Source: Escherichia coli (GTDB taxonomy: Bacteria > Pseudomonadota > Gammaproteobacteria > Enterobacterales > Enterobacteriaceae). From it: DNA of 64,000 nt. Positions 1 to 6,082 of this stretch are shown here, piece after piece. The stretch lies in assembly GCF_048403405.1 (NCBI RefSeq), contig NZ_CP183129.1; one strand, written 5' to 3'. Both the position numbers and the translations under genes were made by a program. The notes below the pieces were generated by a model, which had not been told where the DNA came from, ran no database searches, and was given only the letters and a program-made list of their open reading frames with translations. Within the stretch, counting starts at the first letter, position 1. Every line of letters starts with the position of its first letter.

Positions 1-296
1 CTGGTGCGGTAATATTTGTTACCTCTGCTGTAGAGTATCCTGTTCGTCGTCGTGTACTCTTGTCGATACTCAGCTTTCTTTGTGGTCTTCTCTTTTACAA
101 ACCAACAACATCAATTCTTATCGGAATAGCCAGCATGATACCTACCATCACGCAGGACTCTTTCGAGAAAGGGATTGTTTTCTCTGCTGGCGCATTCGTG
201 TCAGCAATTGTCGCAGTGCGAATTGGTATATGGCTCTATCACCGCTCCGATAATCCACGCGACTTAATTCAGGGGAGAAAAGGCGATGGTAACTAA
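1..296 (+). CDS. 5'-truncated membrane protein in the phage lysis region (holin/antiholin-like); reading frame open from the window edge
   Basis: Frame 3 is open from nt 3 to TAA at 294-296 (track ORF 60..296 is its TTG-initiated tail). Hydrophobic segments LLSILSFLCGLLFY and IVFSAGAFVSAIVAVRIGIWLY. Overlaps the next gene start by 11 nt. Confidence 0.4.
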   Translation, partial: GAVIFVTSAVEYPVRRRVLLSILSFLCGLLFYKPTTSILIGIASMIPTITQDSFEKGIVFSAGAFVSAIVAVRIGIWLYHRSDNPRDLIQGRKGDGN

Positions 297-594
297 TGAG
301 CTTGTTTTGCTTATCACCAATGCAATTATTTGTACTGGCATAGCAATTCGCGTTGTCACATTCCGGCGTAACGGCTCTCAACATCGAAGATGGGGAGGGT
401 GGCTTGCTTATTTCCTTATTGTTGCTGCGGCCAGTATTCCTGTTCGAGTCGCCTATGCAATCTGGTTACGTACGCCAATGGCTGTGGATTTATCTGAGGT
501 CATTATCAACGCTGTCATGCTTGCCGCGGTTATTAAAACACGCGGTAACGTTGTTCAGATTTTCAAAACATCGAGGTCTAAACATGGAGATTAA
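286..594 (+). CDS. putative phage holin (102 aa, about three predicted TM helices)
   Basis: ATG at 286 with GGAG about 10 nt upstream. Hydrophobic helices ([43 protein letters not shown]) and a charged C-terminus. Sits immediately upstream of and overlapping the endolysin. Confidence 0.45.
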
Positions 595-1213
595 ACAATT
601 CCAGCGAGCTGCTGGTATTAGCGAGGCTCTGGCCGCACGCTGGTTCTCGCATATAACTTCTGCGATGAAAGAGTTTGGTATCAGAAAACCCGAAGATCAG
701 GCAATGTTTATTGCTCAAGTCGGGCATGAGTCTGGGGGCTTCACTAGGTTGCAGGAGAATTTCAACTACAGCGTCACAGGACTGGCTAACTTTGTTCGGG
801 CAGGACGTCTCACTCAGGGACAGGCCAACGCATTGGGGCGACGCGCAGGCGAACCACCATTGCCACTTGAGCGCCAGAGAGCGATTGCCAATCTGGTGTA
901 CAGCAAACGCATGGGGAACAATGCCCCCGGCGATGGCTGGAATTACCGTGGCCGCGGACTTATCCAGATTACCGGTTTGAATAACTATCGTGATTGCGGA
1001 AACGGCCTGAAAGTGGACCTGCTGGAGAATCCTGAACTGTTGGCGCAGGACGAATACGCGGCTCGTAGCGCGGCGTGGTTCTTCTCCAGCAAAGGTTGCA
1101 TGAAGTATACCGGCGATATTGCACGTGTAACTCTGATTATCAATGGTGGCAGGAATGGCATCGACGACCGGCGCGCGCGGTACGTCACTGCCAGTAAGGT
1201 GCTGGCTGTATGA
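584..1213 (+). CDS. phage endolysin, glycoside hydrolase family 19 (chitinase-like lysozyme)
   Basis: Track ORF 353..1213 trimmed to the internal ATG at 584 (codon 78), which is preceded by GAGG. Motifs QVGHESGGF and [15 protein letters not shown] resemble GH19 signatures. No N-terminal TM segment, so a holin-dependent endolysin. Confidence 0.8.
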
Positions 1214-1692
1214 TCTGGTCATTCGTAAAAGCATACCGTAAACAGTTGATTATCATGGCGGTGCTTGCTGTTCTGGTCATATCAGGAGTTGTTGCCTGGA
1301 ATGTGCACGGCAGTCGTCAGTACGACGCTGGGTATGCACAGGCGAAAGAAGACCGCAAAACCGAAGATGAGAGAGTTCGTCAGCACTACGAACAGGAGAA
1401 ATCGATCAATGAACGTGAAGCGCAGCAGAGGATCGACCAGGCGCGCAATGATGCTCTTGATGCTGCCGCTCGCGCTGGCCGGTTGCAGCAACAGCTCGTT
1501 GCCATCCGTGAGCAGCTCAGGCACTATAACGCCATTGTCGGCGCTGGGTCGTCAGCCGCAGACACCGGAGTTTTGCTTGCCGACGTGTTCAGCAAATCTC
1601 TCGAGAGAAATAGACAACTGGCAGAGTATGCTGACCGGGCAGCCGAAGCCGGAAGAGTCTGCGAAAAACAGTACGACACCCTGACCAGATAG
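1210..1692 (+). CDS. Rz-like inner-membrane spanin (i-spanin)
   Basis: ATG at 1210 overlaps the endolysin stop (ATGA). N-terminal TM ([18 protein letters not shown]) followed by a charged, Q/R/E-rich coiled-coil-like region. Position is right after the endolysin. Confidence 0.65.
1409..1684 (+). CDS. Rz1-like outer-membrane spanin lipoprotein, embedded in the +1 frame of Rz
   Basis: Internal ATG at 1409 in track ORF 1265..1684, with AGGAG 11 nt upstream. Signal peptide [25 protein letters not shown] followed by Cys (lipobox LAGC). Pro/Ser-rich mature part. Fully nested inside Rz. Confidence 0.5.
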   Translation: MNVKRSRGSTRRAMMLLMLPLALAGCSNSSLPSVSSSGTITPLSALGRQPQTPEFCLPTCSANLSREIDNWQSMLTGQPKPEESAKNSTTP

Positions 1693-1844
1693 CATGGCAT
1701 TTTTCATGGTACTGATTTCCGGTGACGGTATATAAAACGGTACGAGAAAAATTTATCTTTGGAAAAATGTTATCACTCAATTGGTTATGTGTGTCGTAAA
1801 TAATTGAGTGGGAATGATTTTGATCCCTGCACTATGAATGAACA

Positions 1845-1873
1845 AAACCCTCTGTTACTACAGAGGGTTTTTT
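1845..1873. terminator. bidirectional rho-independent terminator (downstream of yfgI on the minus strand, also closes plus-strand transcription)
   Basis: CCCTCTG-ttacta-CAGAGGG stem-loop, followed by T6 on the plus strand and T4G on the minus strand. A second hairpin CTTCAAG-n9-CTTGAAG lies at about 1876-1898. Confidence 0.55.
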
Positions 1874-1911
1874 ATCTTCAAGAATTATAGGCTTGAAGTT
1901 ACTTACATCGA

Positions 1912-2451
1912 TTAATTAAACCAGCTGTCCGATTTGTTCTCTTCTGCTTTGCCCACGCTTTTCATCAGATCTCGACCGCCCTCAGTCATATTCCTGTTTG
2001 CGTCAGCTTCAGATTGCACCACATCGGTTTGCGCAGCTTTGTGCTTCAGTTCCTGATCGATAAATTCGTTTTCTCGCTTAACGCGGGCTTCTTCTTTCGC
2101 CAGCGCCAGTTTTTGTTTCTGAATCTCTAAGCTGCGTAGCTCATCTTGATAACTTTGATCGCGTTTTTTGTCCGCAGAGGCTTCGGCGTCCAGTTTATCC
2201 TGACGAGCTTTCTTATTTGCCGCTGCCGTTGCCGCTCTTTTGTTAGCGGCGGCCTGGGCGTTTGCGCGACGTTGCTTCTCTTGCTGGATTTCCCTGTTGC
2301 GCTCCGCGACCCATTCGTCATGCTGCCTTTGCTCTTCATTTTTACCTTGCTGTTCCGCTTCTGCGACAGCAGAGAGTTGATCCTGCAATGATGAGGCGAT
2401 AGCCGGATAGCTTAAGGAGGCTAAGATGGCGCAAAGAAAAACTTTCTTCAT
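1912..2451 (-). CDS. yfgI: uncharacterized protein YfgI
   Basis: 179-aa track ORF recognised as E. coli YfgI (signal peptide, K/E/A-rich coiled-coil-like body). Conserved position next to yfgH. Confidence 0.9.
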   Translation of the reverse strand: MKKVFLCAILASLSYPAIASSLQDQLSAVAEAEQQGKNEEQRQHDEWVAERNREIQQEKQRRANAQAAANKRAATAAANKKARQDKLDAEASADKKRDQSYQDELRSLEIQKQKLALAKEEARVKRENEFIDQELKHKAAQTDVVQSEADANRNMTEGGRDLMKSVGKAEENKSDSWFN

Positions 2452-2466
2452 GACTCCTCCTGATCA

Positions 2467-2985
2467 TTAGCTCTTTTCAGGACATTTGGTATTTGGCTGA
2501 ATACGCGTTTCGTTATACGTCGTGGTAATAACAACGGCTAAACCTGTCGTAAACTGGCACTCTTTACCCACCTGGGTGGAGGTATACACTTTGGTGCCTT
2601 CCTTATACGTTAGAGAAACACCTTCCACTAAGGTTTTATCATTCACCATAGAACCCGCTGCCGCGCCAACAGCTCCGCCGCCAACTGCACCTGCCGTCGT
2701 TCCGGAATTGCTGCCAGACCCGACGTTGTGGCCAATAACACCGCCAGCGACTGCACCAATAAGCGCGCCGAAGGCTTGTGCGTTTCGTTTATTTTGGGAG
2801 TTGTCTACGGCAACTTTTGCGGGAAGAATGGAAATAATATTAACGGTTTTAGTTTCTTGTTTGGTATTCAGTTGAACGGTTTGATAAACATCGGCGGCAT
2901 GATCATCAGCATTTGACTGGCATCCTGCCAGAGTGAATGACGCTAACATTACCACAGGCAGAAGACATTTTTTAAATTTCATCAC
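2467..2985 (-). CDS. yfgH: outer-membrane lipoprotein YfgH (glycine-zipper)
   Basis: 172-aa track ORF. Lipoprotein signal ending in LAGC. Gly-rich zipper GALIGAVAGGVIGHNVGSGS. Synteny. Confidence 0.9.
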   Translation of the reverse strand: MMKFKKCLLPVVMLASFTLAGCQSNADDHAADVYQTVQLNTKQETKTVNIISILPAKVAVDNSQNKRNAQAFGALIGAVAGGVIGHNVGSGSNSGTTAGAVGGGAVGAAAGSMVNDKTLVEGVSLTYKEGTKVYTSTQVGKECQFTTGLAVVITTTYNETRIQPNTKCPEKS

Positions 2986-3295: not shown

Positions 3296-3487
3296 CTAAC
3301 GTTGTACCGGTGATTCGACGGAGAGTGTGGATTGCTGAGCTTCTTTTTTGCTCTGATGGTGCTGCCATGCACCGACGGACGAGTAGATAAAACGGCCAAA
3401 GAAGAAGATAAAGCTGATGAGCAGTACGATACGGGTCATGCGACTGTTAAATCGGTGTCGTTTTCGCATACTGGTTGCCTGACTCAC
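3296..3487 (-). CDS. yfgG: small membrane protein YfgG
   Basis: 63-aa track ORF matching E. coli YfgG with a single TM (IVLLISFIFFFGRFIY). Synteny. Confidence 0.85.
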   Translation of the reverse strand: MSQATSMRKRHRFNSRMTRIVLLISFIFFFGRFIYSSVGAWQHHQSKKEAQQSTLSVESPVQR

Positions 3488-3838: not shown

Positions 3839-6082
3839 ATGAAACTGAATGCAACTTATATAAAAATACGTGATAAATGGTGGGGGCTTCCGCTGTTCCT
3901 GCCTTCTTTAATCTTGCCCATTTTCGCCCACATTAATACTTTCGCGCATATTTCTTCCGGTGAGGTTTTTCTCTTTTATCTGCCTCTGGCTCTGATGATC
4001 AGCATGATGATGTTTTTCAGCTGGGCGGCATTGCCAGGGATCGCCTTAGGGATTTTTGTCCGCAAATATGCAGAGCTGGGTTTTTACGAAACGCTCTCAT
4101 TAACGGCTAATTTTATTATCATTATCATTCTCTGTTGGGGCGGTTACAGGGTCTTTACTCCCCGGCGTAACAACGTTTCACATGGTGATACCCGTTTAAT
4201 TTCCCAGCGTATATTCTGGCAGATTGTGTTTCCTGCAACGCTGTTTCTGATACTTTTCCAGTTTGCTGCGTTTGTAGGATTACTGGCGAGCAGAGAAAAT
4301 CTGGTCGGCGTCATGCCTTTTAATCTCGGGACCTTAATCAATTATCAGGCCTTACTGGTGGGCAATCTGATTGGTGTCCCGCTGTGCTACTTCATCATTC
4401 GTGTAGTGCGAAATCCGTTTTATTTACGTAGTTATTATTCGCAATTAAAACAGCAGGTTGATGTCAAAGTCACCAAAAAAGAGTTCGCACTCTGGCTACT
4501 GGCATTAGGTGCTTTACTGCTGCTGTTATGCATGCCGTTAAATGAAAAAAGCACAATTTTTAGCACCAACTATACCTTGTCATTATTGCTGCCCCTGATG
4601 ATGTGGGGAGCGATGCGCTATGGTTATAAGCTGATTTCGCTGCTCTGGGCGGTCGTGTTGATGATCAGCATCCACAGCTATCAAAATTACATTCCCATTT
4701 ATCCTGGCTATACCACGCAGCTGACCATAACCTCCTCCAGTTATCTGGTATTCTCTTTTATTGTCAATTATATGGCTGTACTGGCAACCCGTCAGAGAGC
4801 GGTTGTCAGACGCATTCAGCGGCTTGCGTATGTGGACCCGGTAGTTCATCTGCCAAATGTTCGCGCCCTGAATCGCGCGTTGCGTGATGCCCCCTGGTCT
4901 GCGCTTTGTTATTTACGCATCCCTGGCATGGAAATGCTGGTTAAGAACTATGGCATCATGCTGCGGATTCAATACAAGCAAAAACTTTCTCACTGGCTGT
5001 CACCCTTGCTGGAACCGGGTGAGGATGTTTATCAGCTTTCGGGTAACGATCTCGCGCTGCGACTGAATACAGAATCGCACCAGGAGCGCATTACCGAACT
5101 GGATAGCCATCTCAAGCAATTTCGTTTCTTTTGGGATGGAATGCCGATGCAACCGCAGATTGGCGTCAGTTACTGCTATGTGCGCTCGCCAGTGAATCAT
5201 ATCTACCTGCTGCTGGGAGAGCTAAATACGGTCGCCGAACTTTCCATCGTGACCAACGCCCCGGAAAATATGCAGCGTCGCGGGGCAATGTATTTGCAAC
5301 GCGAATTGAAAGATAAAGTCGCGATGATGAATCGACTACAGCAGGCGCTGGAACACAACCATTTTTTCCTGATGGCCCAGCCGATTACCGGTATGCGTGG
5401 CGATGTCTACCATGAAATTCTTCTGCGCATGAAAGGTGAGAATGATGAACTGATCAGCCCCGACAGCTTCTTGCCGGTCGCGCACGAATTTGGTTTATCG
5501 TCGAGTATCGACATGTGGGTCATTGAGCATGCGCTGCAATTTATGGCTGAAAACAGAGCGAAGATGCCCGCTCACCGTTTTGCCATTAATCTGTCGCCAA
5601 CCTCGGTATGTCAGGCTCGTTTTCCCGTTGAAGTCAGTCAGCTGCTGGCTAAATATCAAATTGAAGCGTGGCAACTTATTTTTGAAGTCACCGAAAGTAA
5701 TGCTCTGACAAATGTTAAGCAGGCGCAAATCACCTTGCAGCATCTTCAGGAATTAGGCTGCCAGATTGCGATTGATGATTTCGGCACCGGCTACGCCAGC
5801 TATGCGCGGCTTAAAAATGTGAATGCCGATCTGCTTAAAATTGACGGCAGTTTTATCCGCAATATTGTGTCAAATAGTCTGGATTATCAGATAGTGGCGT
5901 CGATTTGCCACCTGGCGCGAATGAAGAAAATGCGGGTAGTGGCAGAGTACGTTGAAAACGAAGAGATCCGCGAGGCGGTGCTCTCTTTGGGGATCGATTA
6001 TATGCAGGGTTATCTTATTGGTAAGCCGCAACCGTTAATTGATACGCTGAATGAAATCGAACCCATTCGCGAAAGTGCCTGA
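3839..6082 (+). CDS. pdeF: cyclic-di-GMP phosphodiesterase PdeF (membrane N-terminal domain, degenerate GGDEF, EAL)
   Basis: 747-aa track ORF recognised as YfgF/PdeF. Multi-TM N-terminus. EAL-domain motifs (DDFGTGYASYARLKNVNADLLKIDGSF). Confidence 0.93.
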   Translation: MKLNATYIKIRDKWWGLPLFLPSLILPIFAHINTFAHISSGEVFLFYLPLALMISMMMFFSWAALPGIALGIFVRKYAELGFYETLSLTANFIIIIILCWGGYRVFTPRRNNVSHGDTRLISQRIFWQIVFPATLFLILFQFAAFVGLLASRENLVGVMPFNLGTLINYQALLVGNLIGVPLCYFIIRVVRNPFYLRSYYSQLKQQVDVKVTKKEFALWLLALGALLLLLCMPLNEKSTIFSTNYTLSLLLPLMMWGAMRYGYKLISLLWAVVLMISIHSYQNYIPIYPGYTTQLTITSSSYLVFSFIVNYMAVLATRQRAVVRRIQRLAYVDPVVHLPNVRALNRALRDAPWSALCYLRIPGMEMLVKNYGIMLRIQYKQKLSHWLSPLLEPGEDVYQLSGNDLALRLNTESHQERITELDSHLKQFRFFWDGMPMQPQIGVSYCYVRSPVNHIYLLLGELNTVAELSIVTNAPENMQRRGAMYLQRELKDKVAMMNRLQQALEHNHFFLMAQPITGMRGDVYHEILLRMKGENDELISPDSFLPVAHEFGLSSSIDMWVIEHALQFMAENRAKMPAHRFAINLSPTSVCQARFPVEVSQLLAKYQIEAWQLIFEVTESNALTNVKQAQITLQHLQELGCQIAIDDFGTGYASYARLKNVNADLLKIDGSFIRNIVSNSLDYQIVASICHLARMKKMRVVAEYVENEEIREAVLSLGIDYMQGYLIGKPQPLIDTLNEIEPIRESA

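Follow-up and report, generated by a model that had tools for sequence, protein, structure and literature searches.

A linked pair of membrane proteins from two holin families heads the lysis cassette of an epsilon15-like prophage in Escherichia coli

Introduction

Two small membrane proteins of the families PF16931 and PF05449, encoded one behind the other ahead of an endolysin gene, are already known as a pair from the phages epsilon15, phiV10, SPN1S, AP3 and Mana, in all of which they have been annotated. For the Burkholderia phages KS5, KS14 and KL3, Lynch et al. named the two genes 'putative antiholin' and 'holin (DUF754)' from their position and from transmembrane (TM) predictions (PMC3091744). 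DUF754 is the former name of PF05449. The genes of AP3 were given the matching antiholin/holin assignment in silico (PMC5247547), and the announcement of Mana speaks of 'two predicted holin genes' similar to their epsilon15 counterparts (PMC8188340); in the GenBank record of Mana both genes are entered as 'holin or antiholin class I', the class-I topology also inferred here. In phage N4, two different small membrane proteins, gp63 and gp62, were shown experimentally to set the timing of lysis jointly (PMC12642591). For PF16931 and PF05449 themselves the searchable full-text literature yielded in-silico statements only, and no functional experiment on either family was found there. The UE-M6 holin, Ralstonia HolP2110, N4 gp62/gp63, JC1 and ASEC2201 were considered as tests of these families and rejected, as the proteins concerned are unrelated.

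Here we describe a copy of this pair in a stretch of 64,000 nt from the E. coli contig NZ_CP183129.1 (RefSeq assembly GCF_048403405.1), in the following called the window, and compare it with the described systems.

The lysis cassette and its chromosomal site

Positions 1-1692 of the window were identified as the right end of an epsilon15/phiV10-like (Uetakevirus) prophage beside E. coli yfgI, carrying a complete lysis cassette. In the ORF listing (window 1-2400, from an inspection that covered positions up to 6000) the genes follow each other in the order PF16931 protein, PF05449 protein, glycoside hydrolase family 19 (GH19) endolysin and i-spanin with an embedded o-spanin (Table 1). The first ORF lies in frame 3 and is open at the left window edge, beyond which about 106 nt (36-37 codons) of its 5' end are located. 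Its stop codon TAA at 294-296 leads to an overlap of 11 nt (286-296) with the 102-aa gene, precisely as a preliminary description had stated for a second hydrophobic ORF running off the window edge. Another 11 nt (584-594) are shared by the 102-aa gene and the endolysin gene, which starts with ATG at 584, and the endolysin and i-spanin genes overlap by 4 nt (ATGA at 1210-1213). Such overlaps of 11, 11 and 4 nt between consecutive genes are the usual sign of translational coupling. In the window (282-299) the upstream gene ends with …GDGN-TAA, directly followed by an in-frame TGA, and its relatives end with …DDGNA-TGA; as the gene is hence one codon shorter, the overlap amounts to 11 nt compared to 14 nt in epsilon15, phiV10 and L001, the locus of the best E. 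coli relative.

Comparison of window 1-1700 at the DNA level gave identities of 97% to the Escherichia phages EC.W1-9 and phiv142-3, 90% to phiV10, 82% to epsilon15 and 81% to SPN1S, which are all Uetakevirus-type phages, and a match to at least 80% of window 1-1900 was detected in 531 of 5,426 complete E. coli genomes. The RefSeq E. coli copies adjoin yfgI-yfgH-yfgG-pdeF, and their endolysin and i-spanin genes carry the labels 'glycoside hydrolase family 19 protein' and 'DUF2514 domain-containing protein'. The copy in the window is a common, standard prophage lysis cassette. Collinearity with the attP regions of phiV10 and epsilon15 ends at about 1820, which marks the prophage/host junction with the attR region at about 1820-1875; the opposite prophage end lies outside the window, which beyond position 6000 presumably consists of ordinary chromosome. 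The hairpin 3' of the cassette, located just before the stop codon of yfgI (1912), is common to phage and host, and as it is shared amid otherwise diverging sequence, the att core probably includes the yfgI terminator. At the equivalent place in phiV10 and epsilon15 a terminator is annotated. When window 1-594 was aligned to L001 3001-3594, nucleotide identity was 91% in the upstream gene and 97-99.8% from the 102-aa gene onward, which suggests a recombination breakpoint (mosaic boundary) close to where the two membrane-protein genes meet.

Table 1. Features of the lysis cassette and flanking host genes (window coordinates), and loci with an annotation gap for PF05449 (coordinates of the respective locus)
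Feature	Position	Strand	Assignment or record
Upstream membrane-protein gene, 3' part (97 codons + stop)	3..296	+	PF16931 Phage_holin_8, phrog_198
102-aa membrane-protein gene	286..594	+	PF05449 Phage_holin_3_7, phrog_217
Endolysin, 209 aa, glycoside hydrolase family 19, SPN1S/epsilon15 type	584..1213	+	PF00182, phrog_181
i-spanin, Rz-like, 160 aa, one N-terminal TM helix	1210..1692	+	PF10721 DUF2514, phrog_312
o-spanin, Rz1-like lipoprotein, 91 aa	1409..1684	+	phrog_11621, lipobox LALAG/C with Cys26
Terminator-like hairpin followed by T run, 3' of cassette	1844..1871	+	Terminator scan
yfgI	1912-2451	-	Correspondence with RefSeq NZ_CP033850
yfgH	2467-2985	-	Correspondence with RefSeq NZ_CP033850
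yfgG	3296-3487	-	Correspondence with RefSeq NZ_CP033850
pdeF	3839-6082	+	Correspondence with RefSeq NZ_CP033850
PF05449 annotation gap	L017 1483-1767		Pseudomonas phage YMC11/02/R656
PF05449 annotation gap	L018 1471-1809		Pectobacterium phage MA12
PF05449 annotation gap	L019 ~1496-1767		Cronobacter phage ENT39118
PF05449 annotation gap	L008 3378-3668		

The endolysin matched PF00182 (E = 1.3e-9) and the endolysin family phrog_181 (E = 5.7e-92). It is soluble, with no hydrophobic segment and no N-terminal TM or SAR (signal-arrest-release) domain, and the maximum KD17 in its first 45 aa, taken on the 98% identical L001 copy, was 0.42. For the i-spanin, matches to PF10721 (E = 1.1e-40) and to the Rz-like spanins of phrog_312 (E = 1.2e-58) were obtained, with the TM helix at about residues 5-35. 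The embedded 91-aa protein, encoded in the +1 frame of the i-spanin gene, was assigned as o-spanin due to its lipobox ending at Cys26; it matched the Rz-like spanins of phrog_11621 (E = 3.2e-35), and its position corresponds to that of phiV10p30a.

Families, topology and selection of the two membrane proteins

Both membrane proteins could be assigned to named Pfam families, PF16931 and PF05449, which corrects the 'unclear family' of the preliminary description. In the Pfam profile search the fragment of the upstream protein present in the window reached 26.6 bits against PF16931 (cut-off 26.4), and it barely clears the cut-off because it is truncated by the window edge: its full-length relative of 134 aa (L001 2895-3299; family members here have 133-134 aa), which is 92% identical to the fragment over the 97 common residues, reached 46.7 bits. 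The fragment also matched the 'holin' family phrog_198 in PHROGs (E = 2.2e-26), and the RefSeq label of a relative (405 nt) is 'putative holin'. The 102-aa protein matched PF05449 with 93.6 bits (cut-off 25.4; E = 7.5e-27; profile positions 2-80 of 80) and the 'holin' family phrog_217 with E = 4.5e-35; its gene is annotated as 'holin' in epsilon15 and phiV10 and as 'phage holin family protein' in RefSeq E. coli. The HMM search that had been proposed to place the two ORFs thus led to (putative) holin families for both, with no transporter or other non-lysis family above the cut-off. As holin families were the only ones above threshold in Pfam and PHROGs, a transporter or non-lysis family is ruled out for the upstream ORF. 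NCBIfam holds no model for either membrane protein. Searched as a single sequence against a representative library of 1.84 billion proteins, the 134-aa protein retrieved only 56 entries at E <= 1e-3, among which fragments were frequent; this set served for choosing distant members and is no census. In other searches, homologues of full length numbered in the hundreds.

The preliminary description had not recognised either protein as a classical S105/S107, S21 or P2-Y holin, and indeed no match at E <= 1 to the lambda S, S21 and P2-Y holin families (PF05106, PF04971, P2 family) was obtained for either of them. A dual start of the lambda S105/S107 type is ruled out, too, since neither gene has a dual-start motif or a match to PF05106: the 102-aa protein contains a single Met before residue 65, and in the 134-aa relative no K/R separates M1 from M16, nor is M16 conserved. 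Any antiholin would therefore have to be encoded by a separate gene. An origin of the pair by ancient duplication was also rejected, with hhalign giving a profile-profile probability of 0.8% (E = 0.069, 17 columns) for the two families as paralogues. Each family has a nearly conserved basic residue within a TM helix, namely R/K109 (L001 numbering; 'VAVRIGIW', last helix) in PF16931 and R22 ('IAIRVVTF', first helix) in PF05449; the helices with these residues were the only segment aligned by hhalign, at a non-significant level. In Foldseek comparisons of the two AlphaFold2 (AF2) models with viral structures, only weak similarity to further holin-annotated proteins emerged (best E = 6e-3 and 1e-2).

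By Kyte-Doolittle hydropathy, residues of about 5-25, 38-60 and 69-84 form three hydrophobic segments in the 102-aa protein. Its AF2 model, with a mean pLDDT of only 68.5, consists of helices 2-25, 35-61 and 69-84 and a short C-terminal helix 89-99, in agreement with the about three TM helices previously described for the protein ahead of the endolysin. The first loop (RRNGSQHRR) is strongly basic, and the C-terminal tail is basic as well. C16, R28, A41, G87 and N88 do not vary among 11 diverse PF05449 members, and R22, V82 and R86 hardly do; just after TM3 there is a conserved RGNV motif. In the 134-aa protein, hydrophobic stretches were detected at about 17-46, 54-85 and 93-116, together with an N-terminus without basic residues, an RRR cytoplasmic loop and a C-terminal tail of mixed charge. 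G33 and G37, which form a GxxxG motif, and G64 are invariant in 25 PF16931 members; like the GxxxG-type G33/G37, the small-xxx-small motif S60/G64 is expected of an oligomerising TM protein. By hydropathy and the positive-inside rule, each of the two proteins is best read as class-I-like, with three passes and an N-out/C-in orientation. For the 134-aa protein an alternative four-helix, N-in topology is possible, since its AF2 model (pLDDT 70.6) breaks the first hydrophobic stretch at Pro-Pro into helices 7-24 and 28-44. TM helices are present in both proteins in any case, as the topology check suggested in the preliminary description was meant to reveal. Both proteins agree with the structural side of the holin definition of Wang, Smith & Young 2000, as they are small, have at least one TM domain and a charged C-terminal tail and are encoded beside the endolysin.

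Both genes are under purifying selection. For the upstream gene dN/dS was 0.06-0.07 against phiV10 and epsilon15 (0.06-0.13 across comparisons), for the 102-aa gene 0.10-0.12 against the same two phages and, for comparison, 0.05-0.06 for the endolysin.

Linkage of the pair across phages

Linkage was estimated from individually fetched loci, which are no census, and the order PF16931, PF05449, endolysin was constant in all 23 independent loci examined. Start and stop codons overlap by 1-17 nt in 22 of the 23 pairs, and the 68 nt in the last one (L019) result from the choice of an uncertain TTG start. With distant PF16931 members as the entry point (Hafnia phage yong2 and three metagenomic lineages, 24-37% identity), a PF05449 gene was detected directly downstream in every case, for two of these loci with our own HMMs as the gene had been left uncalled. 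Starting from PF05449 matches, a PF16931 gene was located directly upstream in 16/16 informative loci. This second sample comprised Peduoviridae (P2-like; Burkholderia phages AP3 and Mana, Ralstonia phage RSA1, Shewanella phage M16-3), Casjensviridae (Klebsiella phage Soft, Pectobacterium phage MA12), the N4-like Schitoviridae Salmonella phage FSL SP-076, the Stx2e phage phiP27, Cronobacter, Aeromonas and Vibrio phages (Hendrixvirinae), a Yersinia phage (unclassified in its record), two Pseudomonas phages, a Paludibacterium prophage and a JGI contig. A visible partner was missing only from L011 and L027, both of which are cut by contig ends. The earlier suggestion that the holin component consists of two proteins and belongs to a less-studied family is supported by this strict linkage in every related locus examined.

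The two families have also diverged to the same extent, with mean pairwise identities of 0.32 and 0.33, and their pairwise-identity matrices correlate (Mantel r = 0.81, reached by 0/5000 permutations). The endolysins that follow the pair belong to at least six types, namely GH19, PG_binding_1 + muramidase, GH108 + PG_binding_3, M15 peptidase, GH24-type lysozyme and a further type. A hydrophobic N-terminus was observed in 0/19 examined ORFs that occupy the endolysin position beside homologues of the pair (maximum KD17 <= 1.10). As these endolysins are soluble and without a membrane domain, a large-hole holin is required, and a pinholin acting with a SAR endolysin was ruled out from their missing N-terminal hydrophobic domain.

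In the public records listed at the end of Table 1 the PF05449 gene was uncalled or truncated though the ORF is intact with a strong HMM match, reflecting an annotation gap and not an absence of the gene. A fusion of PF16931 and PF05449 was observed in Logan assemblies (P0067; 232 aa; cluster of 21 member sequences, 2 contigs), where the two are joined by a frame change within the G/A-rich run that directly precedes the start codon of the 102-aa gene (…RELIPGEKTMVTHEFF…). P0067 may be a sequencing or assembly error or derive from a dead prophage; were it real and functional, it would be at odds with the predicted C-in/N-out topologies.

Discussion

From the membership of both proteins in (putative) holin families, their place at the head of a complete endolysin/i-spanin/o-spanin cassette with overlaps of 11, 11 and 4 nt, and the linkage, constant order and co-inheritance across 23 pairs, it is near certain that the PF16931/PF05449 pair is the holin determinant of the cassette. 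A late transcript would yield both proteins, with the observed start/stop overlaps presumably keeping them at a fixed ratio. Both would insert with a periplasmic N-terminus, a cytoplasmic C-terminus and three membrane helices each, as in the predicted class-I-like topology, and may then associate with each other in the membrane. At a set time large holes would form and give the soluble GH19 endolysin access to the cell wall, after which the Rz/Rz1-type spanins would disrupt the outer membrane. As to the division of labour, we favour, with a probability of roughly 0.4, the conventional reading from position and analogy, according to which the 102-aa PF05449 protein would be the hole-former and the 134-aa PF16931 protein its dedicated membrane timing partner, an antiholin-like regulator. 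The 102-aa protein shows the hallmarks of a holin with its three TM helices, basic first loop, basic C-terminal tail and RGNV motif. Being encoded by the upstream gene of a coupled pair, the 134-aa protein is probably made in equal or greater amount, unlike the minority antiholin of lambda. Against an antiholin role of the 134-aa protein, the linkage, the equal divergence and its higher conservation within Uetakevirus (91% amino-acid identity to phiV10 and epsilon15, compared to 80-81% for the 102-aa protein) fit an indispensable co-subunit at least as well.

The pair could accordingly be read as an obligate two-component holin, with both proteins as structural subunits of one hetero-oligomeric hole and neither of them able to release the endolysin alone, a possibility that we consider nearly as probable as the preferred reading, though still doubtful. 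It would account for two families that are linked in every examined locus in constant order and with overlapping start and stop codons, that show equal and correlated divergence and equal constraint on their genes, and that move together from one endolysin type to another; the class-I-like features of both proteins, their charged C-terminal tails and the invariant GxxxG in the 134-aa protein are in line with it, as is the label 'holin or antiholin class I' given to both genes of Mana by the annotators of the Center for Phage Technology, who could not distinguish the two. However, separately encoded cognate antiholins would also be co-inherited, so that linkage discriminates weakly, and the best-studied holins of Gram-negative phages are known as homo-oligomers. 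The more specific proposal of an obligate hetero-oligomeric class-I holin, built from two unrelated three-helix subunits and moving as a two-gene unit among gamma- and beta-proteobacterial phage families, is tentative and slightly more doubtful still; to our knowledge, a canonical holin of two subunits is yet to be defined for any phage of Gram-negative bacteria. Unlikely, but with some points in its favour, is a reversal of the roles, in which the 134-aa PF16931 protein would form the hole and the 102-aa PF05449 protein would act as antiholin or regulator: it is PF16931 that has the conserved glycine-zipper-like motifs, is translated first, is better conserved within Uetakevirus and is called 'putative holin' in RefSeq. 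That PF05449 is the family conventionally named holin, directly abuts the endolysin gene and has the more typical basic C-terminal tail speaks against such a reversal, though not decisively.

A role of the upstream protein outside lysis, such as superinfection exclusion or serotype conversion, with the protein merely adjoining a holin, might be suspected from the serotype-conversion genes next to the cassette in epsilon15 and phiV10 and from the entry 'membrane protein' in older records. PF16931, however, also precedes PF05449 in P2-like, Casjensviridae, N4-like, lambdoid and Pseudomonas phages, where such neighbours are missing and the pair is located between tail or head genes and the endolysin; as it recurs in phages with quite different neighbouring genes, we consider this explanation very improbable. 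Even more remote, to the point of being negligible, is the idea of chance ORFs or a transporter fragment, for which only the truncation of the ORF by the window edge could be brought forward. It is opposed by the strong HMM matches to phage families, the dN/dS of 0.06-0.13 and the hundreds of full-length homologues, and the only matches to transporter families, to FUSC in the case of the upstream fragment and to SMR in that of the 102-aa protein, are weak and far below the cut-offs.

Returning to the preferred assignment of a PF05449 hole-former with a PF16931 timing partner, what deserves attention is a two-gene membrane module that is strictly linked across very different phages, always with soluble endolysins, and whose proteins are labelled interchangeably as holin, antiholin or membrane protein. 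Telling a holin-antiholin pair from a two-subunit holin would correct hundreds of annotations and extend the model of canonical holins, which is centred on lambda, by a second architecture.

Comparison with known systems

Two distinct holin-like proteins that are encoded beside the endolysin and together set the timing of lysis are also reported for Bacillus thuringiensis phages and, as LysF1a/LysF1b, for mycobacteriophages; they belong to different families and have different topologies. Phage N4, the nearest analogue with experimental data among those considered, differs in that gp63 has one C-terminal TM and gp62 two, and in that they act as pinholin and regulator for a SAR endolysin and come from other families (PMC12642591); the pair described here, unlike that of N4, occurs with soluble endolysins only. 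With lambda S105/S107 the window shares the three-TM, N-out/C-in class-I topology (predicted for the window), the soluble endolysin and the Rz/Rz1 spanins, but in lambda holin and antiholin are made from one gene via two start codons. P2, with the class I holin Y and the multi-TM antiholin LysA, resembles our best explanation in that a separate membrane protein delays lysis (PMC3091744). In P2, however, the endolysin gene K lies between Y and lysA, and four TM domains are predicted for LysA (PMC3091744); the window proteins have no Pfam match to the P2 family.

Closer to the window are the P2-like Burkholderia phages KS5, KS14, KL3, AP3 and Mana and Ralstonia phage RSA1, which have the same Pfam pair in unchanged order and also overlapping, likewise followed by the endolysin and embedded spanins. 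They differ by an amino-acid identity of 20-35%, an endolysin of the PG_binding_1 + muramidase type and their nature as myoviruses, and the roles of their proteins are predicted. The cassettes of the Uetakevirus members epsilon15 (gp23 'membrane protein', holin, endolysin and Rz/Rz1), phiV10 and SPN1S finally correspond to that of the window in genes, order and kind of overlap and are likewise located at the attachment-site end of the genome, with no difference of substance except that the upstream gene in the window is one codon shorter.
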